Of a DNA stretch of 64,000 nucleotides, positions 1 through 27,486 are shown in pieces. The stretch is from a virus. The translations under genes and the position numbers were made by a program. The DNA lies in the IMG/VR virus record IMGVR_UViG_3300024353_000005, positions 17,675-81,674 of that record; one strand, given 5' to 3'. The notes beneath the pieces are model-generated. The model did no database searches and was not told the DNA's origin. It was given only the letters and a program-made list of their open reading frames with translations. Every line of letters begins with the position of its first letter. Position 1 is the stretch's first letter.

Positions 1-1025
1 TAATTACCCATATCTGTGTAAGTCCAAGCCATTTCCTTTAATCCGTGGCTATGTCGGGGCGATTCCATATTCAGGGAGTAGTGAGCCAATTGCGTATCAA
101 ACTCTATCGTGCTTTCTATACCGAGATGATATTTGAACCATTGAATATCGTGCTTGCCATTTTGGTATATTTTTTTAAGGTCTTCCCTATCAAAGTATTT
201 GCGAAGTTCATTTAGAATCCAATTATATTGCTGATTGTTCCAAATCCGCTTAAGGTTTCTGTCCAATATGGGCAAGACTATCCCAGTATTCTCCTTCCAG
301 CTAAAAGATATACAAAGCAATTTGCCATTATAAGGTCGCAGGGCGGTAGATTCTGTGTCAATGGAGTTTTCCTTAATCTGCCTTAATCTGTAAAATAACA
401 GTTTAACCTTTTTCATATCATTGCAAACAACATATTTCACAGGGGATGTTTTCCTTTTAATCCGCCCCTTGGTTTTGCTCGCCTCTTTTACAAATTCCAG
501 AGCCTTGATAAACTTATCCCTTATCTCATTATTCTGCGAATTTCTAATAATATAGCTCGGATGAATTAGCGGTATGCAAGTAACCTGAAACTCGTCGCTC
601 CAAAATGGCTGCCCCTGAAATTTGAGGGAGCCAGTTTTGTTCAGCACCTGTTTCATAGCGACATTTCCAAGCAAGCCGATTACATTGGGCTTGATAGTGT
701 TGATTTCGTTGACCAGAAATTCCCTGCAAGCCTTCATCTCTTTAGCCATTGGAGTTCTATTCTGGGGCGGTCGGCAACGGCAACTATTGCTCAAGAATAT
801 ATCTGCTCTGTTTATACCAGCTTCTTTCAAACATTTATCAAGTTCCTTGCCTGCTTTGCCCACAAATGGCTCTTTCTTAAGTAGCTCGTCGTTTCCAGGA
901 GCCTCACCAATGAGCATAATTTTGGCAGATTTAGAACCACAACCAGAAAGGCAGATTACCTTGTGCCTACCATCGTTGGTCGTGCTTGTCAAATGTAAAG
1001 GGCATTTTGTGCAGTATACTGACAT
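1..1025 (-). CDS. Family A DNA polymerase with N-terminal family-4 uracil-DNA glycosylase domain (SPO1-like); runs off the window edge
   Basis: Manual translation from ATG 1025: MSVYCTKCPLH..IMLIGEAPG..PFVGKAG..NSCRCRPPQNRTP..HPSY (UDG family 4), then SIDTEST / QNGKHDI / FDTQLAHY (3'-5' exonuclease motifs). Not in the ORF track because it is truncated. Confidence 0.88.
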   Translation of the reverse strand, partial: MSVYCTKCPLHLTSTTNDGRHKVICLSGCGSKSAKIMLIGEAPGNDELLKKEPFVGKAGKELDKCLKEAGINRADIFLSNSCRCRPPQNRTPMAKEMKACREFLVNEINTIKPNVIGLLGNVAMKQVLNKTGSLKFQGQPFWSDEFQVTCIPLIHPSYIIRNSQNNEIRDKFIKALEFVKEASKTKGRIKRKTSPVKYVVCNDMKKVKLLFYRLRQIKENSIDTESTALRPYNGKLLCISFSWKENTGIVLPILDRNLKRIWNNQQYNWILNELRKYFDREDLKKIYQNGKHDIQWFKYHLGIESTIEFDTQLAHYSLNMESPRHSHGLKEMAWTYTDMGN

Positions 1026-2462
1026 TTAATTTCCCTTTATTCTATGTTTCGCTATTTCAGAATATTCTTTGCTCATCTCAATACCAATAAACTTGCGATT
1101 AAGTAATTTAGCCGATATACCAGTTGTACCTGAACCCACGAAAGGGTCTAAAATAATATCTCCCTCCCTTGAACCCAAAATAATGAGATAGCTCATAAGT
1201 TTAATGGGTTTTACTGTGGGATGATTATTCTTATACTTATAGCCATTTTTCTTTGAAGTAACTTTTTTTTCTGCTGGACAGTGGCATCTCGGCTCTCCAC
1301 CAATAAATTTTAATCCACAATTTCCACATTTATCTGCCCAAACTCGATTTTTGGCATCTTGATCTTGCGTTTTATCTGTTAAATTTTCACACCCTTTATT
1401 CTTCTCACTTTTACTAGCTTTAGGCACTATTAAATAAGGAAATACTTTCTGGACTTCTGGTGGTAATTTTTTAATTCGTTCAGCCCACCACGAATCTAAA
1501 TCGAAATAACGGGAATATGAACCAGAATCATTATGAGTGATTTGTCTTTGTCCTTTTCCTCCTAATTTATGTTCGACAAATCTTCCTTCTTGTCTCCGAA
1601 TACAATTCTGTCCAGATTTGCTAATTTTCCCATTATTTAATACATCATTACTTACTATTAAATTAGCAGGGAAACGACCTTTTTGATTAATATGTGCATC
1701 ACCAGCTTGTTGCTTTGTTTTACTAGGTAGAAGACTTGTGCCACCATATTTTTGAATACCTTCTTTATGTCCAACTTTGCTTTTTTCTTTATCTTTCTCA
1801 CTTTTATAAGGTATTCTACAATTATCTAACCAAGTAATTCCTTTACCATTCTTTAATGCTTGGTCTACGTAGGTTTTTTCAGATAAAGATTTCATCGCTA
1901 TTACTATTATTTCAACTGCGGGCTTCATTTGACATCCACCATAGGAACCTTCTAATGCAGATGTTCCTTCAGTTTCAAATATTTCTCTTCTTTTCAGTTT
2001 ACCATTATGGGCTTGATTTATCGGCATACCTTTTTCTGTTGAGACATAAGAACCTTTACTTTTAATAACTTTTCTTTTTCTTCCTAGTCTCTTATCTATC
2101 TTCTTCCCAATGTTACTTGCCTTCGGAAATCCACTAGCATATGCCCAATAAATACTGCTAAACCCAGTTTCAAATCCAGCTTCTTGTAAATTATAAATCA
2201 TCCTACTTAATACATCTTGTCTTGGTGCAGACATTATAAATGCAAATGCTCCAGGTTTTAATACTCGCAAACATTCTTTCCAATGGGAAACAGGAATAAC
2301 TACTTTATCCCAATTTTTGCCCATAAAAGAATATCCATAAGGTGGGTCAGTTACTATTAAATCCATATAATCATCTGGCAGTTTCCGCATAACATCCAGA
2401 CAGTTACCATTATATAGCCTAATCCCATTTTCCGAATAATATAGATAGTCTTTAAGTTTCAT
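1026..2462 (-). CDS. N4-C/N6-A DNA methyltransferase (beta class)
   Basis: VTDPPY near N-terminus, HPTVKP and ILDPFVGSGTT near C-terminus. Confidence 0.92.
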   Translation of the reverse strand: MKLKDYLYYSENGIRLYNGNCLDVMRKLPDDYMDLIVTDPPYGYSFMGKNWDKVVIPVSHWKECLRVLKPGAFAFIMSAPRQDVLSRMIYNLQEAGFETGFSSIYWAYASGFPKASNIGKKIDKRLGRKRKVIKSKGSYVSTEKGMPINQAHNGKLKRREIFETEGTSALEGSYGGCQMKPAVEIIVIAMKSLSEKTYVDQALKNGKGITWLDNCRIPYKSEKDKEKSKVGHKEGIQKYGGTSLLPSKTKQQAGDAHINQKGRFPANLIVSNDVLNNGKISKSGQNCIRRQEGRFVEHKLGGKGQRQITHNDSGSYSRYFDLDSWWAERIKKLPPEVQKVFPYLIVPKASKSEKNKGCENLTDKTQDQDAKNRVWADKCGNCGLKFIGGEPRCHCPAEKKVTSKKNGYKYKNNHPTVKPIKLMSYLIILGSREGDIILDPFVGSGTTGISAKLLNRKFIGIEMSKEYSEIAKHRIKGN

Positions 2463-2931
2463 TTTTTCTCTTGGTTTGCTTTTTAAATGTGATAACTAAT
2501 ATTCCATTTTTCTCTTCGGTCTCAATAGTATTCAAATCAATCATTCGAGGTAATAATATTTCATCTTTTTCGCCTATTGAAAGAATATCGTCTTTAAGAG
2601 CATATTGATTAGTCCCGCTTACTATTATTTTAAATTTATCTTTCTCATTAAATTTATCAATCATAACATTATTCTTTTCAACTTTTACCCTATGGCTTTT
2701 AATCTTTCTACGGACTGTTCCTGCTTTAGTCCGATACCTTTTTACACTTCTTATTCCAAAATTAAATGCTTCTGGATTACCTAAATTAAATGAGTTCCCT
2801 AAAACACGCCCCCTTATCCCAGTAAGTATTTTTGCTTTTTTAGTTTCTGGTAAAATTTCGGAAAATCTTTTTACTATGTTCACAGGACTTCTCCCTGTGC
2901 TGGTTCTAGGTGGTATACTTCTAAGAGCCAT
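2452..2931 (-). CDS. Hypothetical protein, C-terminus resembles Hsp20/alpha-crystallin
   Basis: C-terminal EEKNGILVITFKK resembles the sHSP NGIL-x-I motif; weak. Confidence 0.4.
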   Translation of the reverse strand: MALRSIPPRTSTGRSPVNIVKRFSEILPETKKAKILTGIRGRVLGNSFNLGNPEAFNFGIRSVKRYRTKAGTVRRKIKSHRVKVEKNNVMIDKFNEKDKFKIIVSGTNQYALKDDILSIGEKDEILLPRMIDLNTIETEEKNGILVITFKKQTKRKNET

Positions 2932-3468
2932 TTTTCAAATCCTTCATTATCTGGTTAAATTTTATATCAATCTCATCAGATTTACAATAATCTGGCAATT
3001 TTTCTTTTAAGAAATGAGCAAGCCCCTGATTGGCTCTCGCTAAATTTAATATAAGTTCAGACAGTTCATTTCGTCTTTTTCTATTAGTTTCTTCCTTCAT
3101 AAGCACAGATAAATTTTCTGTGGCTTTAAGGACTATTTTGACACATTCTTTGAGATTGTCAAATCGTTGCAGGCTTTGATTCATCACAATTTTTTCTCTA
3201 TTCTGCTTAAGTAAGACTTGATTTTGATTAGTTCTTTCAATATTTCCTTTAAGACAGCCTTAAATTCCTTAACCTCTGATATAAACAATCCTAAATTAAA
3301 CATTATTCTCTCCAAAACTTTCCAATAAACTATTGATTTTCTCTAAATGATTTTTGGCTTCTTCAACTGCTTTTTTCTGCTTTTCGGTATGTGGAAAATT
3401 TGCTATAATAGTCTCCAGCATCTTTTTCTGCTCTTTTAATTTTTCAACTACATCCTTAAGATTGTTCA

Positions 3469-3759
3469 TTATTTCCTACCTGTGGTCTCATTCTTGGACT
3501 TTTTCTGCTTCTTATCCTTTTCAATTCTTTCCTTCGCCAGCTTATGTTGTTCTAAAAGGTCTACTTTACCTAATGTTGTTCCTTCCTCTTCTTCTTTCTT
3601 TTTAATTTTAAACCTTGGAGGATTAAACTTAGGTAAACCATATGCACCCATCTCTTTTAGCCAATTCCGTTCCCTGATGGCCTTTGACAATCTTTCATGT
3701 CTTTTTAATACTGAACGAGCCTTCTGTCTTCTTCGTTTTAAGGATTTATGCAAACTCAT
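3469..3759 (-). CDS. PVC-superphylum small basic (signature) protein homologue
   Basis: MSLHKSL..RSVLKRHERL..W..GAYGLPK..RFKIKK matches the recalled MSxHxSL..R(N/S)VLKRxER..W..GLPK pattern of the Chlamydiae/Verrucomicrobia/Planctomycetes small basic protein. Confidence 0.78.
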   Translation of the reverse strand: MSLHKSLKRRRQKARSVLKRHERLSKAIRERNWLKEMGAYGLPKFNPPRFKIKKKEEEEGTTLGKVDLLEQHKLAKERIEKDKKQKKSKNETTGRK

Positions 3760-3780
3760 TTGATATTCTCCATTTAATTT

Positions 3781-4712
3781 TCATCCCCAATATCCGCCAT
3801 ATCTCATGTCAATTGAGAACCATACTATTTCAAGTGCAACCCAAACAAATTCTAATAAAAGAATAAATGCAGTAGTTATCTTAATGTATCTATCAGTAAC
3901 TTTTCCATCTAATAAGAAGTAAAGAAATCTTCCTATAAGACCCTTTTTCTGAAGTTTATATTTATTTCTTCTTCGTTTTTTTATTTTTCTTCTTGTTTTT
4001 CTTGGCATTGATAATTCCTCGTTTTTTCAAATAACGCATAACATCATCTACAATATACCAACGAATATCTCGCAAGCAATCATCTACAATTTCTGTAAGG
4101 TCTTGTTTAGTTTTACGGATATTTGTTAATCTTACTTTTTTTCTTGTCCGTAATTTGGGATGTTTCATTTATTTACCTTTCGCAGTATCATTCTTTTTCC
4201 TTCTTTCCAATTCCTTAAGATTTAATATTTTCAAGCCTTCTTCACGAAGATTACCCGCTACTAAATCCACATCTTTATCGGAAGTCCCTAGATGTTTGAT
4301 TTCGCCTTTCCTCTTTTCTAAAATTTCCTTAAACTCCTCAGTCATCGAATCTCCAGCCTTCTTACCATGCTTCATAGCCAATTCGTATATTTCCATATAG
4401 ATTTCGGGAGTCATAAGCCATACATCATTTGCCATTATACTCTCCCTTATTCCATTTGTCATAAATCTTCTTCAATTTGGCTTGCAGATAGGTATTGCCT
4501 ATGTTCTGCATACAGAACTCATCAATTTTATAGAATAGTTTTTGGGCATCTACCAATTGCTTTTTATAGGCTTCTGCTATATCTTTCCAGTAGTCTGGGA
4601 CTTTACTATTATCAACCATATAAATTGGTCTATGGCAATTTGGACATTTTATTTTATATTCCTGCAAAACTGGCTTTGATAAATCTAAAGATTCGCCCTC
4701 AAAAATACTCAT
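3781..4712 (-). other. Run of four small hypothetical genes (3781-4008, 3962-4168, 4169-4462, 4425-4712)
   Basis: Tightly packed or overlapping minus-strand ORFs; 4425-4712 has a CPNC motif. Confidence 0.6.
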
Positions 4713-4883
4713 CTAATCCTCCTCATAAAATACAATATCGCCAGTTTCTGGGTCATTATATCTTATCGCCTTTGGGTTGTTTATAACATTTTTACCTATG
4801 AGCATCCCTATCAAAGATTTGAAAGGCGAGGTTACTATATCTAATTCACTTATTCTTGCTAATATTTTCATTTCGTCCTCTTT

Positions 4884-5258
4884 TTAACTAAATTCGTAAC
4901 TAGCAAATTCAAAACCATCTATATCCATTATCGTATCCTTTAAATACTCAAGGTTATAGGGAAAATTCTTTTTCATATAATTATTGTGGCTTCTATTCTT
5001 CTTATCTCTTTGGAGTTTTTGAACTAATCTTATAAAACTATTTAAATTAATTTCTTCTCCATACTCATCAAATATTTTTCCGCCCCCTTCAATTTTTTCT
5101 TTTAACCATTTTTTCATTTGCTCCCAAGTTGTGTAAAATTTGCCATTATTATATTGCAAGTGAAATACCCAACCAAAACTATGTTTACCTAAATGCAAGG
5201 TATCATATCTTCTACATTCTTTACATATAGCAGTTCTCAAATAATAATTCGTTCCCAT
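4884..5258 (-). CDS. Phage hypothetical protein
   Basis: MGTNYY..CxxC..HLGKHSFGWVF, a pattern typical of phage hypotheticals; RBS AGGAG upstream. Confidence 0.6.
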   Translation of the reverse strand: MGTNYYLRTAICKECRRYDTLHLGKHSFGWVFHLQYNNGKFYTTWEQMKKWLKEKIEGGGKIFDEYGEEINLNSFIRLVQKLQRDKKNRSHNNYMKKNFPYNLEYLKDTIMDIDGFEFASYEFS

Positions 5259-5388
5259 TACATTTCTCCTTTTACCTTATAAGCAAAATATTTTACTAAA
5301 TTTTTGAAGTCTTTTCTAACTCTCCAACATCTTCTCAATCCTAATGCTCTATATCTATACCAAAATTGAAAAAATCTAATAGCCTCCA

Positions 5389-5991
5389 TTATATCTCCCG
5401 CTTCATTCTATAATTAAAAAACTTGATAAGAATCCTATATGCCAGTTGTTCTGCCAGTTTCGGGTTTCCAGCGAATACAACTTTTATGTTGTGCTTTATC
5501 ATGAGGCTAATTAAAGTGGCTACTATTAGTTTAACACTTACCTCGCCTGGGACTTTTCTCATCTGGGCTAAATCCCTAAACGAGCCTTCTATCAGAAGAA
5601 ACTTATATGGAATTTTTTCCATGCGTTCTATTTCTCGCATAAATCGTTCCCTGTCCCCAGCGAAGTTTCCGAAGAGTTCGTTTATCCTTTTTCGCTCAAT
5701 AATAATCTCGTTTTCAAAACCCTCTAAACTATAATCACCTGTTACCAGTTTTTTCATAACTATTTTTGCTTCTGCCTCTTTACCCTTAAATAAGTAGCCA
5801 CAATTTTCTCTGGTATCAGTAATTATCACAGGGATATGAATCCCTTTCTTGCGTCGCTTTATCCGCTTAAGCCAGTCCTCGCATTTGTAGCTGGTAACTT
5901 TGGTATAAGGGCAGTGCCTCACTCTGTCAAGACCACAGATTTTGCCCTGATTCCAGTATTCGCATAATAGTTTTTCGGTTTTCTTTTTCAT
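5389..5991 (-). CDS. ERCC4 (XPF/Mus81)-domain nuclease
   Basis: IITDTRE, KLVTGDYSL and IIIERKRINEL motifs; likely start ATG 5991. Confidence 0.85.
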   Translation of the reverse strand: MKKKTEKLLCEYWNQGKICGLDRVRHCPYTKVTSYKCEDWLKRIKRRKKGIHIPVIITDTRENCGYLFKGKEAEAKIVMKKLVTGDYSLEGFENEIIIERKRINELFGNFAGDRERFMREIERMEKIPYKFLLIEGSFRDLAQMRKVPGEVSVKLIVATLISLMIKHNIKVVFAGNPKLAEQLAYRILIKFFNYRMKREI

Positions 5992-7983
5992 TAGAATGGT
6001 GAGGTTATCTGTATTTCCTGTAGTTGCTTCCATCGATAGACTCTTCCACATTGGCACTGTAAAAGTTCTCCTGCTACAATAGGAAAGAGTAATAACTCCC
6101 TTTTATTAGGTTTGTATCTAATATCCAATAATTTCATTTTTCTTGAATGAGTATGACAAATTGGACATCTATAATTAGATATTGAGACCCATTGAGTTTT
6201 CATTTTTATCCCAACCTATTCTGGTCGTTTATCCAAAGGCAAAGATCGTTTCATCTGTTCGACATATTCATCCAGATAGCCCTTCACATAGGTAATCATA
6301 TCAAAGCCAAGTTGAAAGGTGGCGATTTCTTGATAGTCGTCTTTGACCTTTTCCTCCACTATATACCGCCCATTCTCCTGTGTAATCCTGATGACTTTGC
6401 CTATTGTGATGATGTTTTTTTCAGCCATTTTCACACCTCTTTATATCCCTATACATTTTATTAATTTGTAAAATCGTCGATAAGCAAAAACCGCTTTTTC
6501 TACTTTCTTTATTAAATATTCTCTTTCACGTTTACTTTTACAATTTTTGACACAAAAACTATTTCCTCGACCATTTAATCTTAAAATTTGAATATTACTC
6601 ATTTATTCCTCCTTTCTATGGTTTCAAAATAGTTTTCAATAACTCCATAGCCTCTTTTTTCTTGAAGCCTGCTTCTTGATATGCTTTATACATCTCATAA
6701 AGACCTTTAGCCATCTCATCTTTTACTTTAAGTAAATTAGCTACAGCTTCCTGCATTTGTCGAAATTGAACATCTGTCATTTTATTATCCTTTCCAAAAT
6801 TATAGAATTTCCCCATATTCATTTAGCCGAGTTGTATCCTTTGGCTCTTCCACAGGAGCTGATGTTGGGATCGTTTCCAAGCCATCTATTTTGCCCTGCA
6901 AAATAACCAGTTCCTGCCTGATTTCCTCATACTTGGCATTGGTCGTTCCGACATCGCCTGCCACCTGCTCAACTTGCTTCTGAACAGAATCATTCAGCCT
7001 TCTCAAGAGCTGATGGACTGGGGTGTTACGCATTTCTTCACGATTTTGGGCTGTGTCGTGTTCGGGACACAGTTTCGCTATCGCCTTGTCTTCCACTGCT
7101 TCAACTAATGTGCCACAAACAAAACATGGTATCTGTTTAGCCATTCTACACCTCCTTATCCTCACTTAAATAAATTGTTGAAATGGACCGTGTTCCACAA
7201 ATTTCTTTCTCTTTAAATACTCGAATAACCTCACTACCTGTTCCATTATCGTAAGCTAAATATACAGGTAAGGCACCATCATATTTTTGTAATTCATATA
7301 TAAGTTCAAGAACTGTCATTCATCCCCCTATCTATAAATAAATTTTTATCTGGTTTTCCCATAGTAGAATAATTATGATAATTGCCACACCTGTTACACC
7401 ATATTTCTAATAAGTATTGTTGCTCATAACCATATCCTAAATCACAACCATCATTATGACAATTTAATCTTTTAGTCAGAAACCATTTTAGTAGATGAAA
7501 CATTCGCTAACCTATTCCTCTTTGTCTTCCAAGAAATTATTACATTTCCTGATATGGCTTGTAATCTTTATGATATATTGATTAGGATCTATATTTTCTA
7601 TCATATCCAAAAGCTTCTTATACTTTGTATAGATTCCACAAGTATTGGCATGCTGGCACTTTTGGCATATACATCTATGAGAATCGATTACCACAGACTT
7701 TTTCAGCGACATGGCTACTACCCTATCCTTCTTTATTGACTTTATACTTTCTTCCAGAATCTATCTTGCCTAAACCATGGCATACAGGACAAAGTTTCGT
7801 GCCATACATCTTTCTTCCAGCACCCGAAATGGTAACTGTTATCACTCGGCCTTCTTTACATCTTGAGCATTTTATATATACCCTCATGTCGTCATCTGTT
7901 ATATTAACTTCTTGCTGCTTTTTCGTGCTGTGTATCTGTTCAGCAGGATTTCGTTTCCAGAATTTTCTAAACTTGATGATCAT
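5991..7983 (-). other. Cluster of small hypothetical, often Cys-rich ORFs (5991-6203, 6216-6434, 6616-6822, 6800-7165, 7306-7503, 7512-7712, 7723-7983)
   Basis: Contiguous minus-strand ORFs, several with CxxC pairs. Confidence 0.6.
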
Positions 7984-8490
7984 TTACTTTCCTTTACTAA
8001 CTCCACGAACATTAAATCCCTTGGTAAATTTAGCCCGTAGCAAAACCAAGCTGTTTGGAACCATGCTCCACTTCCCTTTCCAGAAGGGAGTTTCAAAATT
8101 GATCCTCTTGTTTGGTATTAGCAGTTGTATTCCATATTTTTTGTATAATTTACCTCTTTTTTTGCCCTCTAAAGCAGTTAGTGGCATAAGCAAAGCAAAA
8201 GGTTTTTCCAACTCATAACACCTAGCTAAAAATTTATCTTTAATTGAGTATGGTGGATTTGTAACTATACAATCACACTCTTTATAACTGTTTAAAAAAT
8301 CAAAATCCTTATCACTCCCTATTACATCAAACCCTTCACTTTTTAAAAAATTAAATAGATTTCCTTTCCCCCACGCACACTCCCATATAATCCACTCCCT
8401 TTTCAAATAAGGTAATAAGAAATCTAATGCTATTTTAGGTGTTTGGAAATTATCGGGTCTTCCATTACTCTGAATTTTTAATTTTTTCAT
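7980..8490 (-). pseudogene. Small phage DNA N6-adenine methyltransferase with an apparent +1 frameshift near 8087
   Basis: WECAWGKG and IVTNPPY motifs. Removing one C from ACTCCCTTC gives ..RINFETPSGKGSGAWFQTAWFCYGLNLP.., ending in an ATGA overlap with the next gene. Confidence 0.75.
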
Positions 8491-8815
8491 CTTTATCCTT
8501 ATAAAATTTTAGTAATAGGTAACACCAGACAGCAATTTTAATTATATCCCTTTCTCTCCTATCATTCTTGAATCTAATTAATCTTTTTAGTATATCACAA
8601 ATAATAAAGCTCACATACCCATCTTCTCCCACAACCTGTGGCATAATGTCTATTGTTTCTGCCTTATCTTTTTCTGCTCCAGTATATTTATCTGTCCCTT
8701 GAAGTATAATACTTTTCATATGTCCTATGAACTCATCGAAATAAGATAACTTTCTCGGAATATCCTTCTCTTTAGCTTGAATTTTTCTGCTTTTGTCCCT
8801 GTCATTTTTTAACAT
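8465..8815 (-). CDS. Hypothetical protein
   Basis: ORF track; DIIKIAVWCYLL C-terminal helix. Confidence 0.6.
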   Translation of the reverse strand: MLKNDRDKSRKIQAKEKDIPRKLSYFDEFIGHMKSIILQGTDKYTGAEKDKAETIDIMPQVVGEDGYVSFIICDILKRLIRFKNDRRERDIIKIAVWCYLLLKFYKDKDEKIKNSE

Positions 8816-9066
8816 TCTTCAATCTCCTTTTCCAAAGGTTTCACAATATTATCAAACCTGTCCTTATCAACCTCTTTCGGAATCGCCTTTAATAAGTCTA
8901 TCGAAAATTCTGTGTTTAATCTTTGCTGTCTTACTACATAGTCCATAATCATCTTCTTAAAATCATCTGGCTTATCGTTTTTTATGGTCTCTTATAATTT
9001 GCTCGTGAGGGCTGTGTAAGCCTTCTGGAATTTCTGTATCTGCTGGATTTTCTTAAGCCGTTTCAT
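8809..9066 (-). pseudogene. 86-codon hypothetical gene interrupted by an in-frame TAA at 8992-8994
   Basis: MKRLKKIQQIQKFQKAYTALTSKL*ETIKNDKPDDFKKM..EIEEC fills the gap between its neighbours exactly. Confidence 0.6.
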
Positions 9067-9603
9067 TTACAATTCCTTATCAGCCAACCCATATTTTATG
9101 GCTTCTTTGGCAGTCAACCATTTTTCTTTAGCTTTGGCTTCTTCCAATATCTTTTTAGGCAAATCACTCCTATCCAAAACATAATCATCGTATAATTTCT
9201 CATATTGTTCAGCATTTAATATCCTTGATTTGACAAAACTTACATAGTCATTTGTACCGATAGAAACAGGATGTATCATAACAAAAGCCCGCTTAGAGAT
9301 ATATCGCCTTCCTTGAGTACCAGCCAATAGAATAGGAAGGGCCATCGAACAGATTTCTCCGACACCGATAGTCTTAATAGAACATCTACATTTTTCCATA
9401 ACATCGACAAGTGCCCAGCCATCGCCTGTAAATCCACCTGGACTATTAATATAAATAGTAATGGGTCTTCGCTTCCTATCCCTATCGAGTTCAAGAAGCC
9501 TCATAATAATCTTTTCAACACTCTCGCTGTTGATTTCCTTGAAAAGATGGAGAACACGGGATTTATCTCTTCGCTGTTTCTTATTTTTCCTCTTCTTGGT
9601 CAT
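9067..9603 (-). CDS. clpP: ClpP-family protease
   Basis: IYINSPGG, CSMALPILLAG (catalytic Ser), MIHP (His), WLTAKEAIKYGLAD. Confidence 0.92.
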   Translation of the reverse strand: MTKKRKNKKQRRDKSRVLHLFKEINSESVEKIIMRLLELDRDRKRRPITIYINSPGGFTGDGWALVDVMEKCRCSIKTIGVGEICSMALPILLAGTQGRRYISKRAFVMIHPVSIGTNDYVSFVKSRILNAEQYEKLYDDYVLDRSDLPKKILEEAKAKEKWLTAKEAIKYGLADKEL

Positions 9604-9619
9604 TTTCTCTGCTTTCTTT

Positions 9620-10054
9620 TCATTTCTTATCTTTTTGTTTAATTATTTTAATTTGAACATATTTTAATTTTAAAGTTAAATAAATTGCTCCTGCACAAAT
9701 TGTAGCCAATAAATATTCACCCATTCCACATAAAATTCCGATACCTACAATCGCCCAAAGTGTACTTGCTGTAGTAATACCCTCAATTTTCTTTTTATTA
9801 GTTATCATTACCCCACCACCGAGAAAGCCAACGCCTGCAATAGTATAAGCAATTATTCTTCCTAAATCATACTTAATCCCCTCAGAAGTAGGAACATCTC
9901 TCAAAATAAGTGAAATAATGGTGAACATAGTAGCACCAAGACAAATTAACATAGCATCTCTTAAACCCGCTGGTTTCTTTTGAGACTCTCGTTCCCACCC
10001 AATTAAGGCACTTAAAAGTAGACTTAAACCTATACCTATTAGATGATTAATCAT
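9620..10054 (-). CDS. MgtC/SapB family membrane protein
   Basis: IGWERE..KPAGLR, GVGFLGGGVM, GITTASTLW. Confidence 0.92.
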   Translation of the reverse strand: MINHLIGIGLSLLLSALIGWERESQKKPAGLRDAMLICLGATMFTIISLILRDVPTSEGIKYDLGRIIAYTIAGVGFLGGGVMITNKKKIEGITTASTLWAIVGIGILCGMGEYLLATICAGAIYLTLKLKYVQIKIIKQKDKK

Positions 10055-10701
10055 TTTTCACCTTTACCTTCTTTAACAGGCTTGTCTGGTTTTTGCTCGG
10101 ATTTGAACTCTTCTAATGCTTTTTCAGCTTCTTTTTTGAGTGCTTTAAAATCCTTATAATCCTCTTTAATCGCTTCTAATGCTTGAGTAAAATTGGGATA
10201 GATTTTTCTTTGGTCAATAGGTTTGGTTTTGCCTCTACCCATTCTAACTATCCAAGAATTTTTGTCGAAAATAGATTCTTGCACAACTGTATAAATTGGA
10301 ATACGATGCCTATAAGCATATGAGAGTTCGCTAATTGTCCCACCCATTTGGACTTTTTTGCCCTTACTATCGTGGAACTTTAAAAATACTATGATAAAAT
10401 CACTTTTTTCAACACAATCCAAATCCATATCTATTATTCTTTCCATCGCTGGGTCAAATTTATCCCAATGTCCCCCCTGTCTCCATCCCTGTAATACTTC
10501 TTTAACCTTTTCTAATGGAATATTTGGGTCAACATATCCTTTCAACTTCTCATTCTCCATTCGACAGGGATCTTGAATTACAATTTTAGAACCAAAATAT
10601 TCAATCAGTTCTGGAGTAATCTTATCCCTCCACTGGACACCCCCATCTGGAATGTCCTCCATCGCCCCACACAAATAGGTAACCAATTTTTCGTCTATCA
10701 T
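10051..10701 (-). CDS. Nucleoside 2-deoxyribosyltransferase/nucleotide N-hydrolase-like protein
   Basis: TYLCGAM..WR, DLDCVEKSDFIIV, GTISELSYAY. Confidence 0.75.
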   Translation of the reverse strand: MIDEKLVTYLCGAMEDIPDGGVQWRDKITPELIEYFGSKIVIQDPCRMENEKLKGYVDPNIPLEKVKEVLQGWRQGGHWDKFDPAMERIIDMDLDCVEKSDFIIVFLKFHDSKGKKVQMGGTISELSYAYRHRIPIYTVVQESIFDKNSWIVRMGRGKTKPIDQRKIYPNFTQALEAIKEDYKDFKALKKEAEKALEEFKSEQKPDKPVKEGKGEK

Positions 10702-11501
10702 TTTATATCCTTATTTCTAACTCGCAGATTTAACCGCCAAATTTCTTCCAATAAATATGGGCAATAACCTGCTTCCCTTGACCTGTAAATTAGTGCATTT
10801 AGGTCTTTTGGAAAGCAAACTCCACCAAATCCTAATTTACCATCTAAACCTGGCATTTTAATATTCGTTCCTATTCTTTTATCGTAACTTAAAACTTGCT
10901 CAATTATTTTATATTCTATTCCTAATCGCCTACAAATTTGATATAACTCGTTGGCGAGTGCTATCTGCCCAGCCAGCATTATATTAGAGGCATATTTAAC
11001 TATTTCAGCCTCGGCGAAAGTGACTCTGATAATTGGGATGTCTTTGAATACTTCACGATACATTTTTTCGAGTGTCTGAAAGATTTCATTTTTATCTGTG
11101 CCAATTACTATTCGTTTGGAATTGAGCATATCTTCATAGGCATATTTAGCCCTTAAAAACTCTGGGTTGTGTGCAAAATTAAATTGTGGAAATCTGCTAG
11201 CAAATCGTGTGGTCGTGCCTGGGACTACTGTACTCTTGATAACGATTATCTTATTGGATTTGGTTAATCTTTGTATTTGTATTAGGGAGTCTTTTATATC
11301 TCTTAGGCCAATTCTACCGCTTCTCAACATAGGCGTAGGAACTGCGATGAAAATAATCTGACAGTTATCCACCAATTCTTTGTCGGTAGATACTATTTCA
11401 TCCTTCTTATACTTGTCATAGTAATAGACCCTGTGTGCCTGTTCAAGCACTTTGCCTGTTGCCGAGCCTACTATGCCAGTTCCCCAGATACCTATGTTCA
11501 T
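10698..11501 (-). CDS. UDP-glucose/GDP-mannose dehydrogenase family
   Basis: GIWGTGIVG, AVPTP, KSTVVPGT, NPEFL, GFGGVCFPKD; likely start ATG 11501. Confidence 0.93.
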   Translation of the reverse strand: MNIGIWGTGIVGSATGKVLEQAHRVYYYDKYKKDEIVSTDKELVDNCQIIFIAVPTPMLRSGRIGLRDIKDSLIQIQRLTKSNKIIVIKSTVVPGTTTRFASRFPQFNFAHNPEFLRAKYAYEDMLNSKRIVIGTDKNEIFQTLEKMYREVFKDIPIIRVTFAEAEIVKYASNIMLAGQIALANELYQICRRLGIEYKIIEQVLSYDKRIGTNIKMPGLDGKLGFGGVCFPKDLNALIYRSREAGYCPYLLEEIWRLNLRVRNKDIK

Positions 11502-11779
11502 TTTACCACCCTTAAAGAATTTTGTGTAAAACAAATTGGACATATAGTATTACCACTTTCGTTATCTAAAAACCATTCAGTAAAATACTGCACTTTGCAG
11601 GCTAAACATTTAAAGAGTTTTCTATATCCTTTGCCAATTTGGAAAACTTTAATCATTTTATTCTCTTTAATGTTAGTTCGTGAATATCCTTAATAAATTT
11701 CTTGATTTGATATACCACATACTTTCGTTCATCCCATAATCTAAGTAAAAACCATTTTAAATAATAAATAAATTTCATT

Positions 11780-14700
11780 TTATCCTCCTAATCTAACCAA
11801 CCAACTTGTGTCCTTAAAAGTTTCTATTCTTTGTTTCCCAAATATCTCATCAACTGCTTTCGTAACATCTGGTAAATACCCGTAATCGTGTCCACCAATC
11901 ATTCCATTCGGCTTTATCTTTGGTAGCCAAGTTTCAATATCTTCTTTCACATTTTCATACTGGTGATTACCATCTATATAAACAAAATTAAAAGCCTTGT
12001 CCCCAGATTTTTTACTCTCTTTTGCACTCTCGCCTTTTATTTTTATTACATTATTAAATTTCTTCATTCTAATATCAAAAGCCTGTTCTATTAATTCCAT
12101 AGGATATTGTTGATAAAACGATTTATCATCCCCATCATAGTAATTCTTCCAAGGGTCAATAGCATAAACTCTTTTACATTTCTTGGCGAATAGTTCGGTA
12201 GACTCCCCTATGTAACTTCCAACCTCTACCATAACACATTCCTTCGGCAATCCGCTAATCAGTTCTTGTAATCCTTCTTTTCCTCCTACAAAGTTCCTCA
12301 CATACATCCCTTTTGGAATATCGCTTTCTTTTATTATTTTACTTTTTTCCACAGTCTTATCAGTAACCTCATAAAAATAAGTCAAATTATATGGGTTAAA
12401 TTGCGCTGTAGATTTATAACCAAAAGATGCTAAATAATTATCTATTCTTTGTTTCAAAATAGCCGATTTCGCTTCTATAAATAAGTATGGATGACATTTC
12501 TGCAAAGTCTTTTTAGCACCCTGTAATACATTATACTCATAATCTTCAACATCTATTTTGATAAGTGATATTTCCTCATCTTTCAATACTTCATCAAGGG
12601 TAATCATTTTTATAGAGTTTCCCTCTTTTATATAAGTCCTTCCATCATATTCTATTCCTGATCCACTTGGGGATTTTTCTAAATCACAAAAACCTGCTTT
12701 CGCTCCCACAGCATAAGGAAAAACTTTAATGTCCCTCAACTTATTCATTTTTATATGATTTTCTAATACTTTTCTAACCTTATCATATGGCTCAAAAGCA
12801 AAAATTTTAGAGTGTGGACAAAATAAACTAAAAAATATAGTATGATTTCCTATATTAGCCCCCACATCTACTATAACTTTATTTTTATCAAGCTTTAATT
12901 TTCTTGAGAACTCCAATAACTCCTCTTCATAGAAATTCCCATTCCACAAAAACCTCTGATTACTAACATCATTATTCGTAATAGATGTATCTATCCAAAT
13001 TACCTTGTTGTAATTCTTTAATAGAACTTCTCTTTTTTCAGCTAAGATTGCTTTCCATTTTCCATATTGCTCATTTTTAGTCAATATATTCGGCTTTGTT
13101 ATATGTCCACCATTTTCGTGTGCCTCTAAAATCTCTCGCATAAATTTATCTTTATCATCTGTCAATAAATCGCTGTTTACGGCCTCTCTCAAAGCACCAT
13201 AGCCTTTCGTGCAAAGTATATGAGTTCGGCAACCCAATATTTCCGCCAAATAAGGGGATACCCCAAATGTTTCTGGGAAATCGTTGACATAAAACATTCC
13301 TACCGAACTTGCTATCTCCCTTATTACATCTTCTAATGTAGAGAGACTCCCTAAAAATACTATCCCAGCTTCCTTTAATTTTTGCTCGTTCACCTTATCA
13401 TACCCAGGTGTGCAAACATATAACTTTGCACCTATAAATCGACCATCCTTTTTTAGTTCCGACCATAGTTTAATCGTGCTATCTAATCCTTTCACATTAG
13501 CACTTGCATAGATATATTTATTCTTATCTTTCTCTGCTTTGTAATTATAAATCCAATCTGGAAGCCACAATTTTATCGTTTCAATATTCTTAACATATTT
13601 TTCGAAGAGAGATTTCTGCCAATCTGATACTGTAATAAGAGTAGCGTTATCCTTATTTAAAGCCTCGAATAAATGCTTATGAGCAAGCGGTGGTGCATCG
13701 TGTGCCCATACAATAAGTCTTTTATATTTAATTGGAGGCAAACTGCTATATCTAAAAACTATCAGGGTATCGCACTCGTAATTATAACAGTTATTATAGT
13801 TTTTCCACAATATTCTATCATGCACCTTTGGTTTATCAGTTCTAGAGAAAGCCAGCACTTTCTTTTCTTTAGCAAGCTCGGTTAGTAAAAGTGATGCTTC
13901 TAATATTGAAGCCCCGACCCCTCTCTCTTTCCAAGTTCTTGAGGTAAATGGTGTCGTAACATCATCGTAAAAGATAATATCATATTTTATAGGTTTCTTC
14001 TCTTTATAGTTAATCACAGCAAACTTTTTATTTGTAGTATTGTATTCAACATATTTCTTTCTTAATTTCTTTGATACATTTTCGAGTAATTGCTTTTCCA
14101 TTCCACGATTTGTATCATCGATTAGTATAGGAACTTTGGTATTAAATAATTTGAGATTTTCATAAAAACCCTTTCTTCCTATATACCCAGGTGGGCCATC
14201 TACTAATATTATGTCATACTTGGTCGGAAGTTCCTTTTTTAATATATCCACATCATACCAGCCATTTTTTATAGATGCATAAATATATTTAGCCCTATTT
14301 GTAAGATTAAGCCACTCTTTATCATGCTCCACAGAATATACTTTGTAGTCCTTCGCCAAATCTATTGTGCTTTTCCCACTTCCAAGTTCTAGTATGGTGC
14401 TTCCTCTTGGGATATTCCTTCTTATCCAATTATACATTTCCTTATCCATAGACCACTCTGAAATTTTGTTCAGTGAAAATTCTCGATTCTTTATATTCTG
14501 CTCTTTAATAGATTTAGGAATTCCTGTCATAGAATCTATCCTATTACATACCCTAATCGACTCCGCATATTTTCCTACATAATAAAGAGCAATTGAATAC
14601 TCAAACAACATCAAATAACTGTAGATATTCTGCTCAACGAATAACACATCTAATTTGGGATATTTTATTCCGATTCCTATTCTGGAGAACTCGTATGCCA

Positions 14701-15541
14701 GTTGCCTCTGTCCAAGATTGCGATATAAAAGTGTCAGTTTAAAAATGGCTTCTGCTCTCGTTGGTCTGTAGTTATATGCCTTTAGATAACTGGTAATAGC
14801 TTTATTGTTATCTTTGAGTAATAAATAACAGTTGCCTATCTGATATAAACTGCGATAAACTTCCTCTTGCCAACCTCCGAAATTTACTCGTTTCCGATAA
14901 TATCTGATAGCCTGCTGGTATCTACCATCTTCCCGCAAAGATTGAGCCAAATAAAATGTATATCTCACCTTATTTTCTGGGTCTGTCTTTATAGCATTTT
15001 TCAAAATCTCAATATCCCTCTTTATCTTTGTGGAATAATTCATAGCTCGCTTCCCGTCGTGCAAATCCATAAATCTGATATTATTTAATTGTCCAACAGT
15101 TGCTTTATTAGTGGATAAGAAGTTGTGTATAATTCCCTTATACTTACATCCACAATCAGGCTTAAAAATCTTGGGGAAATGGTGCTGCAATGTTGGATAT
15201 TTTACGATACAGTTATAAATGTCTTTATCCAGTTTATCCTTATCAAAATCCTTATCAACTTCTAAAACTTGGTCGGCATCCATTACCAAGATATAATCTG
15301 CTTTGCCCTTTGCTTCCTCGATATAATAGTTTCTGGTTTCGCCAAATCCAGCCCAATCCTTTATGATTATTTCCCCTGGAATATCCTTGAGAACATCACG
15401 AATAATCTCCACAGTATTATCAGTAGATTTGGTATCCTCTATTATCACATAGGAGTCAATGATGCCCTTGACGGAATCGAGGCAACGTTTTATCACCCTC
15501 GATTCGTTTTTGACTATCATTGCTAATGCTAAAGTTTTCAT
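11780..15541 (-). CDS. Multidomain GT2-TPR-methyltransferase-GT-B-FkbM-methyltransferase protein
   Basis: MIVKNE..MDAD (GT2), TPR-like helices, ILELGSG..LVDGPPG (MTase), PETFG (GT4-like), VDVGANIG..KIDVE (FkbM), VEVGSYIG..YIDGNH..GGHDY (MTase). Confidence 0.85.
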   Translation of the reverse strand: MKTLALAMIVKNESRVIKRCLDSVKGIIDSYVIIEDTKSTDNTVEIIRDVLKDIPGEIIIKDWAGFGETRNYYIEEAKGKADYILVMDADQVLEVDKDFDKDKLDKDIYNCIVKYPTLQHHFPKIFKPDCGCKYKGIIHNFLSTNKATVGQLNNIRFMDLHDGKRAMNYSTKIKRDIEILKNAIKTDPENKVRYTFYLAQSLREDGRYQQAIRYYRKRVNFGGWQEEVYRSLYQIGNCYLLLKDNNKAITSYLKAYNYRPTRAEAIFKLTLLYRNLGQRQLAYEFSRIGIGIKYPKLDVLFVEQNIYSYLMLFEYSIALYYVGKYAESIRVCNRIDSMTGIPKSIKEQNIKNREFSLNKISEWSMDKEMYNWIRRNIPRGSTILELGSGKSTIDLAKDYKVYSVEHDKEWLNLTNRAKYIYASIKNGWYDVDILKKELPTKYDIILVDGPPGYIGRKGFYENLKLFNTKVPILIDDTNRGMEKQLLENVSKKLRKKYVEYNTTNKKFAVINYKEKKPIKYDIIFYDDVTTPFTSRTWKERGVGASILEASLLLTELAKEKKVLAFSRTDKPKVHDRILWKNYNNCYNYECDTLIVFRYSSLPPIKYKRLIVWAHDAPPLAHKHLFEALNKDNATLITVSDWQKSLFEKYVKNIETIKLWLPDWIYNYKAEKDKNKYIYASANVKGLDSTIKLWSELKKDGRFIGAKLYVCTPGYDKVNEQKLKEAGIVFLGSLSTLEDVIREIASSVGMFYVNDFPETFGVSPYLAEILGCRTHILCTKGYGALREAVNSDLLTDDKDKFMREILEAHENGGHITKPNILTKNEQYGKWKAILAEKREVLLKNYNKVIWIDTSITNNDVSNQRFLWNGNFYEEELLEFSRKLKLDKNKVIVDVGANIGNHTIFFSLFCPHSKIFAFEPYDKVRKVLENHIKMNKLRDIKVFPYAVGAKAGFCDLEKSPSGSGIEYDGRTYIKEGNSIKMITLDEVLKDEEISLIKIDVEDYEYNVLQGAKKTLQKCHPYLFIEAKSAILKQRIDNYLASFGYKSTAQFNPYNLTYFYEVTDKTVEKSKIIKESDIPKGMYVRNFVGGKEGLQELISGLPKECVMVEVGSYIGESTELFAKKCKRVYAIDPWKNYYDGDDKSFYQQYPMELIEQAFDIRMKKFNNVIKIKGESAKESKKSGDKAFNFVYIDGNHQYENVKEDIETWLPKIKPNGMIGGHDYGYLPDVTKAVDEIFGKQRIETFKDTSWLVRLGG

Positions 15542-15709
15542 TATCTTTCTTTCCTAAATATTATTTCTTCTTGCCTTCTACAAATCTGCCAGTACTGGCC
15601 GAGTAAGCACTAATTGTGATTCTCTGTTTCCATTTAGGCCATCTTTGGACTATATCATAATCGTCAGAAACAGTTTTCCAAAAGGAACTATTATCCTTAT
15701 CTCGTCTTT

Positions 15710-16196
15710 TCATTTCACATCTCCCGATTCTTTTATTTTTTGGTCTTCATATCCCGCTAAAATTCTTCTTTCAATTTCTGTGGCACATTGTCTTAGTTCC
15801 CCACAATAATTTTTGTAATTATTATAGGAAGGTTTAACATACCTCTTACAAAAAGCATAAAGGATATAATTCAAATCTCCGTTGGCACAGACTCCCATTT
15901 CTCTCATTTTATTTATTACATTGTCCATCCGTTTTCTATTTTCTTGATGTATATAAGGCATCTTAATCCTCCAATTTATTTCTATGTATTAATTTCATAG
16001 TTCTTTCTGCATTTCCTATTCCTGCAAATTCTCCATCACAAAAATAAAACTCGATACCCTTTATCCCAGTTTCATGTTCCATCATTTTTTCTAATTCAGC
16101 TAATCTCCTATGATATTCTCCTTCAATTCTGCTATGTAATTTAGTGTATACTTTGAGTATTCGTAGTAATTTTCTGGTTATTTTAATTTTTTGCAT
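15710..16196 (-). other. Two hypothetical genes (15710-15961, 15963-16196)
   Basis: MPYI..GDLNY..YEDQKI..GDV is a typical phage hypothetical pattern. Confidence 0.6.
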
Positions 16197-16206
16197 CTAT
16201 TCCTCC

Positions 16207-17424
16207 TTAAATATCGGCTAAATCAACTGCATAACTAAAGGTTAAAATCCTCTCCTTTGAAACGCCCCAGACTAACTGAACTGGGTCTGCCCTCTTAGCC
16301 AGCGATTCGGCAAACTCGTCTGCACCGATAGGCGAACCGCCCCTGAACACTCTCGTTCCATTTGCATCGAAAATGCCAAAGTGGTGAAAGTGGCCATAGA
16401 CGATTGCATCGGCCTCGTGCATGCTCGCCCACCCACCAAATTTTGCTCTGCTAGCAGATGTATCAGATTGCTCTGGTGCAATGTGCCTGATATGGTATTT
16501 CCAACCCTGTATCTCAAAGTTAAGATAGTCAAGCGTGGAAAAATGAATCTCTACCTTTTTATTATTGGCATATGCTTGATATTTAAGGACAAGGTATATC
16601 ATTATATCCCAGTTGGAATTTGGGTCTTTATCCTTGCCAAGACGACCATGATTTCCCTTTACTCCGTAAAACTTGACATTTAGCTTCCTATCAAGAAGAG
16701 CCTGAATCAGCTTGGTAAATACTTCCACAACCAGCATTACTTGATAAGGTGGAGCGAGTTCCTGTTCATATGCCTGTGTTGCATATATATCTTCGCCATT
16801 AGCATTATCGCCAGTTGAGATAAGAACCACATCATTGATTTTAGTCCCTTTCTTAATATGGTTATCCAACAGCTTTAATATCTGGGCACAGAATTTGTCC
16901 ATTCTCCGCTTAAACACAGCCTCATTATAGACTATATTGCCCTGCTGGTCTTTAACTACCTTGCCAGCGTGCCAGTCAGATAAGTGGATTACTAATGTTT
17001 CCCCAGTAATATGAGAGTGAGTTTTGGCAGCCTGATATGGTTTAATATCCTTTGTAAGTTCCTGCAAGGACTCTACCAAAAGTTTAGAACGAGTTGTTGA
17101 GTCAATTATATTGTATTGCTTACATAAGCTCCTCACTTTATCCTCACTTATACCGAGTTTCTTAGCGACTACCGATTTAGTTTCATAAAGAGCAAGTAAT
17201 TTCAACAATTCTTTCTGTGTTACAGAAGAGTCTTCCTTAATGACCTCTGATTTGGTGATATATTTTTTATAGTTAAGCTCACCTTTTGCTCTTTGTTTGG
17301 CTGCAATCCTCTCAACAGTCCTTTCGCTGATACCGTATTTAATGGACAGTTGGGTAGTAGTCAGCCCTTTATTGTAATCCTTATTAAACTGAACTAAATT
17401 AGTTTTATTTTTCATTTTAATCAT
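16207..17424 (-). CDS. Calcineurin-like metallophosphoesterase with N-terminal HTH domains
   Basis: SDWHAG, STGD, KGNHG, GHFHH; YGISERTVER HTH. Confidence 0.85.
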   Translation of the reverse strand: MIKMKNKTNLVQFNKDYNKGLTTTQLSIKYGISERTVERIAAKQRAKGELNYKKYITKSEVIKEDSSVTQKELLKLLALYETKSVVAKKLGISEDKVRSLCKQYNIIDSTTRSKLLVESLQELTKDIKPYQAAKTHSHITGETLVIHLSDWHAGKVVKDQQGNIVYNEAVFKRRMDKFCAQILKLLDNHIKKGTKINDVVLISTGDNANGEDIYATQAYEQELAPPYQVMLVVEVFTKLIQALLDRKLNVKFYGVKGNHGRLGKDKDPNSNWDIMIYLVLKYQAYANNKKVEIHFSTLDYLNFEIQGWKYHIRHIAPEQSDTSASRAKFGGWASMHEADAIVYGHFHHFGIFDANGTRVFRGGSPIGADEFAESLAKRADPVQLVWGVSKERILTFSYAVDLADI

Positions 17425-17443
17425 CTCCTATTTTTAATAGTTT

Positions 17444-18340
17444 CTATTTCTCTATTTCAAAAATATACACTGGAACTTTGCTGCAAATACCAATAATTTC
17501 TCCTCGATTATTAAAAACCGCTCCTCCAGAATTACCAAAGGTAGTAAGAGCATCGATTCCAAAATAAGTAGAATCAATATCTGTGTTACTGACTATGCCT
17601 TTTGAGAGATTATATTTTCTTCCCAATGGATGCCCCAGAACATAAACTTCATCTCCCACTTTAGGATAAGTTTCAGCCAATTCTAATATCTCAAGTTCCA
17701 CTCCTTCATTTTTGTATATTCTCAATAATGCAAGATCTAAATCAGGATTGACAAATAAAAATTCGCCAGCCACCATAATAGAATTCTTTATTTGCACAGT
17801 TGTATTTACAACATCTTTTTGAGGAGCAAGCAGTTGTAGTGCTTCTTCCTCCAAAAATTGCTGCATCATTTCCAATTTAACAGCCAACCCCATATTCGAT
17901 TCAGGAACTAGACCTATGTGCTTTGAGGTTTTGTTCTTTTTATCACCAAGTAGATGTTGGACTGTCAAGATATAATAAAAATCCTCATCCTCTTTTATAC
18001 ATACTCCAGCAGCTACATATTTTTCATTATAAATGGTAACCGTTCCATTCATCATTCTTTCAAAATCTGGTTTTACCCACTTTTCAGAAAGAATACTAGC
18101 TCTTTTATATAAATCGGTAATAGCTCTGGCTTGGACATCCAAAATATCGGCAATCATTCGAATGGAAAGGTGCAATACAGTTTCATTTCTCTCTACTCTA
18201 TCTTCTGTTATCACAGATTTCTTAACTTCCACTATATGGATAAAAGCATTAGACAAAACAGCGATTACCAAGATTGTGTATAATATTCGTCTTAATGTCT
18301 TTCTCATTTTAATCAATCTCCCCTTTTGGAACAAATCCAT
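17444..18340 (-). CDS. Membrane-anchored trypsin-like serine protease
   Basis: N-terminal hydrophobic segment; triad LTVQHL, DLALL, GNSGG. Confidence 0.88.
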   Translation of the reverse strand: MDLFQKGRLIKMRKTLRRILYTILVIAVLSNAFIHIVEVKKSVITEDRVERNETVLHLSIRMIADILDVQARAITDLYKRASILSEKWVKPDFERMMNGTVTIYNEKYVAAGVCIKEDEDFYYILTVQHLLGDKKNKTSKHIGLVPESNMGLAVKLEMMQQFLEEEALQLLAPQKDVVNTTVQIKNSIMVAGEFLFVNPDLDLALLRIYKNEGVELEILELAETYPKVGDEVYVLGHPLGRKYNLSKGIVSNTDIDSTYFGIDALTTFGNSGGAVFNNRGEIIGICSKVPVYIFEIEK

Positions 18341-27290: not shown

Positions 27291-27333
27291 AAAATAAAAA
27301 AGCCGAACCACCACAATATTCGGTAGCTCGGCT
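27291..27333 (-). terminator. Intrinsic terminator of riboswitch B
   Basis: AGCCGAGCUACCG/UGGUGGUUCGGCU stem followed by a U-tract; overlaps the aptamer 3' end. Confidence 0.85.
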
Positions 27334-27392
27334 ATCATTTCTGACCCGTAGCTTTGCGCTTCGCTATTTCAGCGAATTGCCTTTATCGTAAT
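27310..27392 (-). ncRNA. c-di-GMP-I (GEMM) riboswitch B (promoter-distal)
   Basis: AUUACGAUA-AAGGCAA-UUCGCU GAAAU AGCGAA-GCGCAAAGCUACGGGUC..GAUAGCCGAGCUACCGAA-UAUUGUGGU; 9-bp P1. Confidence 0.88.
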
Positions 27393-27445: not shown

Positions 27446-27486
27446 AAAATAAAAAGCCGAATTGCCTATCCTTCGGCAACTCGGCT
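27446..27486 (-). terminator. Intrinsic terminator of riboswitch A
   Basis: AGCCGAGUUGCC/GGCAAUUCGGCU stem followed by UUUUAUUUU. Confidence 0.87.

Follow-up and report, generated by a model that had tools for sequence, protein, structure and literature searches.

A phage-encoded homologue of the PVC small basic protein with a phage-specific tail, and a likely Omnitrophota-like host

Gene and genomic setting

Judged by its sequence, the gene at positions 3469..3759 (minus strand) of the phage DNA analysed here is an apparently unreported virus-borne form of a known cellular family, the PVC small basic protein. A search of 50,697 GenBank phage records returned no homologue of the encoded protein, and a literature search that covered some candidate papers only in part returned no report of a viral copy.

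The window, i.e., the whole stretch of 64,000 nt that was analysed, comprises positions 17,675-81,674 of IMG/VR virus record IMGVR_UViG_3300024353_000005. The parent record is a linear sequence of 81,674 bp (about 82 kb) from an uncultivated phage, rated 77% complete by CheckV, with a G+C content of 34.6% and no tRNA genes found. A DNA sequencing run labelled as subsurface metagenome may be its source; no RNA run containing the sequence was listed. The window is tailed-phage DNA: it encodes a portal, an HK97-type capsid, a prohead protease, a DnaB-primase, a UDG-exonuclease-PolA and several methyltransferases, together with host-like genes for ClpP, MgtC, def and a receiver-GGDEF-HD-GYP protein. 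An earlier note made from the sequence alone had called the small basic protein gene a phage copy, and its place on a virus record among portal, capsid, prohead protease and DnaB-primase genes bears this out. Two proteins of the window are unusually large for a phage. One, of 1164 aa (45075-48569, plus strand), contains an ATP-dependent DNA ligase domain, and its gene is flanked by those for the portal and an AAA ATPase. The other, of 1253 aa (11780-15541, minus strand), joins a GT2 glycosyltransferase and TPR repeats to two methyltransferase domains.

The small basic protein gene is an ORF of 96 aa with an ATG start, its stop included in 3469..3759 on the minus strand, and a Shine-Dalgarno-like GGAG, read from the sequence, lies 8 nt before the ATG (3768..3771, minus strand). 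It belongs to a long array of closely packed genes on the same strand; 21 nt separate it from the preceding ORF, and it overlaps the following one by 1 nt. The minus-strand arm places the gene between an ERCC4 nuclease, DNA methyltransferases and UDG-PolA, and the same arm includes the non-DNA genes ClpP, MgtC, def and a protease. A promoter scan found 19 sites against 14.0 ± 3.2 expected and is uninformative.

The protein begins MSLHKSLKRRRQKARSVLKRHERL and is rich in basic residues (32 K+R in 96 residues, pI 10.6). The peptide quoted in the earlier note, which named no strand, is the translation of this ORF, with every quoted motif present. Two parts can be distinguished. The conserved head (residues 1-55; 3595..3759, minus strand; pI 11.9) is homologous to the cellular PVC small basic protein and contains M1 S2 H4 S6 L7, R15-S-V-L-K-R-x-E-R23, W33 and G41-L-P-K44. 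The phage-specific tail (residues 56-96 plus the stop; 3469..3594, minus strand) is conserved across a 29-member family and consists of an acidic EEEE linker, then TTLGKVDLLEQHKLAKE, then the basic end KK..ETTGRK (KKETTGRK). Against four phage orthologues, pN/pS of the gene was 0.141/0.643, 0.151/0.732, 0.208/0.782 and 0.280/0.615, and it was low in the head as well as in the tail (tail 0.17-0.34 over 0.72-0.90). The ORF is a real gene under purifying selection. Conservation rules out a chance ORF (29 homologues at E ≤ 1e-3, TIGR04137 at E 5e-10, low pN/pS).

Relationship to the cellular family

TIGR04137, the NCBIfam model 'small basic protein', matches residues 1-46 of the window protein to profile positions 1-48 of 50 with an E value of 5e-10. 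The model is an equivalog model with a curated cut-off of 50 bits; the window protein reaches 39.1 bits, or 40.4 bits by six-frame search, both below that cut-off, and by the NCBI rule it is therefore not an equivalog. The TIGR04137 search that the earlier note had suggested thus delivered the match and missed the curated cut-off. Among the phage-type relatives, 10 of 29 reach 50 bits (range 32.5-60.3) and 28 of 29 match at E ≤ 0.01; by these scores the sub-clade of the window protein is the most divergent of the phage subfamily.

In an alignment of 100 cellular and phage family members, the window protein keeps all seven invariant columns (M1, H4, S6, V17, E22, R23, K44) and ten of the 11 near-invariant ones. 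Its sole departure, K to N46, is common to all seven phage rows of that alignment. When 1.84 billion representatives were searched exhaustively with HMMER, 24 matched at E ≤ 1e-3, of which the distant ones share 41-51% identity over residues 1-60 and mostly (17 of 19) pass the TIGR04137 cut-off. Relative to Verrucomicrobiota, the window protein branches inside the TIGR04137 family tree. No Pfam family was matched by the window protein, and PHROGs gave only an HNH match at E 0.1. From the profile match and the kept core residues we conclude that homology to the PVC small basic protein is secure, and the window protein can be read from its sequence as a true homologue. The same reading in the earlier note is upheld by the TIGR04137 match, the conserved core and the position within the family tree. 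One property of the cellular family is absent: the window gene lies on a virus record and so is not a single-copy chromosomal gene of a PVC cell, whereas the cellular genomes with a match (278 of 301 in Omnitrophota, 157 of 201 in Verrucomicrobiota) have a single one.

The phage subfamily

A search of 5.8 billion proteins returned 29 relatives at E ≤ 1e-3, none of them named, which are 61-109 aa long and 55-100% identical. They are conserved over their full length, the C-terminal 40 residues included; in the tail, H72, K76 and K84 are invariant in the 29-member family and T61, D67, K89, E91 and G94 nearly so. The phage-type tail is absent from the 30 Omnitrophota and 23 Verrucomicrobiota proteins that were read: the former end in low-complexity Ala/Pro/Glu/Lys tails, and the latter are 50-52 aa long and without a tail.

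Phage-type genes with readable context occur at six distinct loci, all of them phage DNA related to the window phage: four IMG/VR records (L002-L005), one metagenome contig (L085) and one contig from a genome collection (L006), with L086 not counted separately because it is the same contig as L004. Five of the six are syntenic with the window, with an ERCC4 nuclease, small ORFs, the small basic protein gene, a DNA methyltransferase and PolA; the related phage contigs span 17-106 kb. Wherever context is readable, the subfamily is found only on phages related to the window phage. Three of the phage orthologues have a TTG start instead of ATG (L002 10001-10294, L003 753-1040 and L005 10001-10294). 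Two further sequences carry half of the protein joined to unrelated sequence, P0031 (220 aa) with only the phage-type tail and P0036 (85 aa) with only the phage-type head; frameshifts or faulty gene calls on short contigs probably account for both.

L006 shares 10 ORFs with the window phage at 29-66% identity, and its small basic protein is of the phage type (58% identity). It was the only confirmed phage-type locus in a scan of 185,579 species, one genome each, with two search patterns, one of them the phage-type LPK[FY]N[PF] motif. The 80.9-kb contig (locus 1-11861) is filed in the MAG of an Asgard archaeon, Candidatus Hodarchaeota. We read it as a phage contig that was probably mis-binned, a binning error in the Asgard MAG, since the lineage carries bacterial def, ClpP, sigma-70 region 4, DnaB-DnaG and c-di-GMP parts. 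These bacterial-only parts on the phage likewise led us to reject an archaeal host as unlikely.

Phylogeny

A profile of the phage family (A1) matched 278 of 301 Omnitrophota genomes, with a best score of 67 bits and most of the matches listed at 45-60 bits; it also matched 157 of 201 Verrucomicrobiota genomes, with a best score of 42.9 bits and most of the matches listed at 22-36 bits. An IQ-TREE tree of 122 rows and 60 columns, built without named Planctomycetota and Chlamydiota, separates 44 Omnitrophota-labelled, 14 unlabelled and 32 phage rows from 26 Verrucomicrobiota rows and six others (including L009), with a support for the split of UFBoot 98 / SH-aLRT 94. Omitted beforehand were L008, whose locus contains no start, the truncated P0020 and P0029, and P0030-P0033, which are fragmentary or come from a fused call. 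The phage rows and P0036 form one clade (92/90). The phylogeny with PVC homologues that the earlier note had proposed therefore places the phage clade within the family and groups it with Omnitrophota at 98/94. Rooted on Verrucomicrobiota, the tree puts the phage clade beside the sampled Omnitrophota proteins as their sister group and not within them, so it does not single out a donor lineage; with only 60 alignment columns, the finer and deeper branching order is unsure. On the sequence comparison, the closest cellular relatives of the phage protein are Omnitrophota proteins.

By title, a further 17 genome loci comprise seven Omnitrophota, nine 'uncultured Planctomycetia/Planctomycetales' and one Opitutales. 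At least three of the nine Planctomycetia/Planctomycetales loci fall in the same GTDB phylum as an Omnitrophota genome: G002 and G113 are in that phylum's sample, and the L014 protein is the same as the L026 protein. The NCBI titles of the 'uncultured Planctomycetia' MAGs (L010, L013, L014 and others; 1-2.2 Mb) thus disagree with their GTDB placement; the Omnitrophota genomes sampled were of 0.7-3.7 Mb. No protein above the TIGR04137 cut-off was found in the 14 control genomes.

The surroundings of the cellular gene were also read. Despite the model name 'Chlam_Ver_rRNA', rRNA lies beside the gene in none of 12 Omnitrophota-type loci and in one of 20 Verrucomicrobiota loci, and an Rfam search of 12 Omnitrophota-type loci gave no match. 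In 23 of 27 Omnitrophota loci (L025-L052) an HD-GYP (HD_5) gene of the same strand precedes the small basic protein gene, the two being separated by a long gap of roughly 450-580 bp, and an SH3_3 or peptidase M50 gene lies downstream.

Host

A second host marker, independent of and separate from the small basic protein gene, is a c-di-GMP-I riboswitch. Rfam model RF01051 detects an aptamer at 27319..27391 on the minus strand with 57.1 bits (gathering score 35), and a second, weaker aptamer at 27472-27546 on the same strand scores 33.5 bits, just below the gathering score. The tandem aptamers lie just after the receiver-GGDEF-HD-GYP gene (27608-29149), between it and an unannotated ORF of 186 aa (26541-27101). 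The phage could make or break c-di-GMP and also sense it. Riboswitches of this class were found in 77 of 101 Omnitrophota genomes, 74 of them above the gathering score, and in none of 101 Verrucomicrobiota or 14 control genomes. Some Omnitrophota copies stand in tandem, and the copy number reaches 11 in a 1.5-Mb genome.

The Omnitrophota grouping in the tree and the riboswitch together make an Omnitrophota-like bacterium our best guess, and a PVC (Omnitrophota-like) host is likely. The earlier note had placed the host among PVC bacteria; the tree at 98/94, the A1 scores and the riboswitch speak indirectly for that claim. The CRISPR-spacer check that went with it found no spacer, and no close prophage turned up in the Omnitrophota genomes searched. 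The note had also proposed that def, clpP and the GGDEF gene be compared for a shared taxonomy, and here def and clpP were uninformative and the Atlas neighbours of the GGDEF protein came from mixed phyla. Identity between the phage def and the def of Omnitrophota does not exceed 43% (matches in 123 of 151 genomes), and clpP matched none of 61 genomes at E ≤ 1e-30, a threshold too strict to say more. The nearest Atlas clusters of the GGDEF protein are Bacillota and Planctomycetota; Omnitrophota HD_5 proteins share 36-40% identity with its HD-GYP domain. Portal matches occurred in just nine of 401 Omnitrophota genomes, at 23-29% identity.

When positions 1-20000 of the window were compared with 401 Omnitrophota genomes, no CRISPR-like repeats were seen at 15 places with short DNA matches. 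The best DNA match, 78% over 218 nt, falls in a DUF3310-like gene (72% aa identity) on L139 (G592:C94), a 4.1-kb phage-like contig with Prim-Pol and a 5'-3' exonuclease in an Omnitrophota MAG; a second match falls on a contig of 23 kb that encodes a lambda-type portal and a terminase. A phage-like contig in the second of two Omnitrophota MAGs, L140 (G544:C21), encodes a homologue of the window ORF 19747-20127 with 40% aa identity. L139 and L140 each share a single gene with the window phage. As weak hints, these DNA matches may point to a common phage gene pool.

The phage might instead infect another low-GC bacterium outside PVC, the gene being a relic of an old transfer or acting on phage nucleic acid. 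Such a host would fit the lack of a direct link from the def, portal, clpP or CRISPR searches, the Bacillota among the nearest Atlas clusters of the GGDEF protein, and the nearest cultured relatives of the portal, which are Bacillus phage portals at 25.5% identity. Moreover, c-di-GMP-I riboswitches occur outside Omnitrophota too. We nevertheless consider a non-PVC host improbable, as the tree and the riboswitch are two independent markers on one phage that point to Omnitrophota, none of 14 control genomes has a TIGR04137 match above the cut-off, selection maintains the gene in a phage lineage with copies 55-90% identical, and the 78% DNA identity over 218 nt is to a phage-like contig in an Omnitrophota MAG.

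Structure prediction and the uL30 question

The AF2 model of the phage protein (pLDDT 74, pTM 0.27) has a predicted helix at residues 20-30 and a long one at 68-92, and that of a 51-aa verrucomicrobial core (pLDDT 79, pTM 0.50) has predicted helices at 5-8 and 22-32. Both models are extended, with one main helix plus coil and little tertiary structure, and as predictions they resemble proteins that fold on a partner. Foldseek returned no match at E ≤ 0.001. In a wide comparison with solved chains, the phage model reached Z 2.7 at best, and the cellular core had no match at Z ≥ 2. None of these fold searches produced an L30-like fold or an HU, IHF or H-NS-like fold. Sequence searches of the PDB with phage and cellular profiles gave nothing below E 0.07, and no solved structure contains the family.

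In-vitro work by Lagkouvardos from 2014 reportedly describes nucleic-acid binding in general terms. According to a later paper (PMC7203096, Cavalier-Smith and Chao 2020), Lagkouvardos et al. 2014 described, in a group lacking L30, a small protein that binds RNA, folds in an L30-like pattern and may replace the missing L30. In the genomes searched, uL30 (TIGR01308) was detected in none of 61 Omnitrophota, none of 41 Verrucomicrobiota and 10 of 14 control genomes. That uL30 went undetected in two PVC phyla allows the stand-in idea; it does not show it. Gupta 2012 (PMC3444138) describes the protein as present throughout PVC and of no known function, and PMC5541142 reports the CT421.2 mRNA as highly abundant in Chlamydia.

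Proposed function

We hold with moderate confidence that the gene encodes a virus-adapted PVC small basic protein, derived from an Omnitrophota-like host, in which the head would bind a host target (RNA or the ribosome) and the tail would add a phage property. An ancestor of the phage lineage would have captured the gene from an Omnitrophota-like host. In place of the low-complexity Ala/Pro/Glu/Lys tail of the cellular protein, the subfamily has a conserved charged tail, predicted as a helix and ending in KKETTGRK. During infection the head may bind whatever the host protein binds; the likeliest target is RNA or the ribosome, in which the host protein has been proposed as a uL30 stand-in. The suggestion of the earlier note that the phage copy replaces or competes with a housekeeping factor is plausible as a hypothesis. 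The new tail could then give the bound complex a property that serves the phage, by recruiting a phage factor or by changing which messages are read, a mode of working that we compare with that of phage-encoded bS21. Within this explanation the ribosome step appears to be the least certain part. It is conceivable, though doubtful, that the PVC signature protein has taken the place of uL30 as a ribosomal protein specific to its lineage and that the re-tailed phage copy enters Omnitrophota ribosomes and retunes them for phage messages; if so, this would be the first case of a clade-specific ribosomal protein encoded by a virus, and it would offer a handle on Omnitrophota phages.

A histone-like role, in which the basic head coats or bends the DNA of the phage, when it replicates or is packaged, or of the host nucleoid and the tail makes protein contacts, would suit a strongly basic protein (pI 10.6, head 11.9) whose gene lies between an ERCC4 nuclease, DNA methyltransferases and UDG-PolA, a position conserved in five related loci. 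The A/P/K-rich tails of the cellular proteins, which we take to be reminiscent of histone-H1-like tails, could be counted in the same direction, and the 2014 in-vitro work of Lagkouvardos is reported to describe nucleic-acid binding in general. However, the arm that carries the gene also carries ClpP, MgtC, def and a protease, non-DNA genes by which the position of the gene says little about its role. The fold searches gave no HU, IHF or H-NS-like fold, and the family is described as RNA-binding in PMC7203096. We therefore think DNA binding unlikely. A different use of the head is as a decoy that fills the site of the host protein, with the altered tail and N46/Pro-Pro inactivating the complex so that host translation or another host process is shut down; this corresponds to the competitor of the earlier note. 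The core is indeed kept while the stretch after LPK has undergone a change fixed in the subfamily (K to N46, then PP) and the tail has been swapped completely, but there is no evidence of toxicity, and purifying selection over the whole length fits a working part equally well. Phages with ribosomal-protein homologues are also thought, according to PMC6375957 and PMC9723584, to use these proteins and not to poison with them, and the decoy strikes us as quite improbable.

Implications

To our knowledge, few phages have been described for Omnitrophota. The small basic protein provides a sequence-based host clue for this uncultivated phage lineage and, together with the riboswitch, points to Omnitrophota. 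Lagkouvardos, in 2014, is said to have treated the same protein as a PVC-only marker, and Gupta 2012 (PMC3444138) uses it as a marker exclusive to PVC cells. The conserved viral subfamily means that this PVC marker travels on phages too, so a metagenome match alone does not prove a PVC cell. The phage protein can also be regarded, from its sequence, as a natural chimera of kept head and swapped tail, which would indicate a binding module and would make it a ready competitor for binding tests; the phage copy is a natural variant for working out the role of the cellular protein.

Comparison with known systems

With the cellular family of TIGR04137 ('Chlam_Ver_rRNA'; CT421.2 in Chlamydia trachomatis) the phage protein shares the same core of ~50 residues with all invariant residues. 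Both proteins are small and basic, and the phage length of 96 aa is inside the family range, given as about 53 to > 80 aa in Gupta et al. 2012 (PMC3444138); the cellular members read in this analysis were 50-128 aa. The phage copy differs in being virus-encoded and below the curated cut-off, in a loop before RSVLKR that is 2-3 residues shorter, in K to N46 followed by Pro-Pro after the LPK motif, and in a predicted helical tail where the Verrucomicrobiota proteins have none and the Omnitrophota proteins have a low-complexity one. With uL30 (rpmD, TIGR01308), for which the PVC protein may be a functional stand-in according to PMC7203096, the protein showed no sequence match in the family searches made here, and the AF2 models match no solved chain.

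In mode of working we draw a parallel with phage-encoded ribosomal proteins, above all bS21 (Mizuno et al. 2019, PMC6375957; Chen et al. 2022, PMC9723584), which is likewise a small, basic, host-type RNA-binding protein encoded on large phages and, presumably, becomes part of the host machinery in infected cells. In contrast to bS21, the cellular counterpart of the present protein is not a proven ribosomal protein, the phage form has gained a conserved tail, and the family is restricted to one bacterial superphylum.
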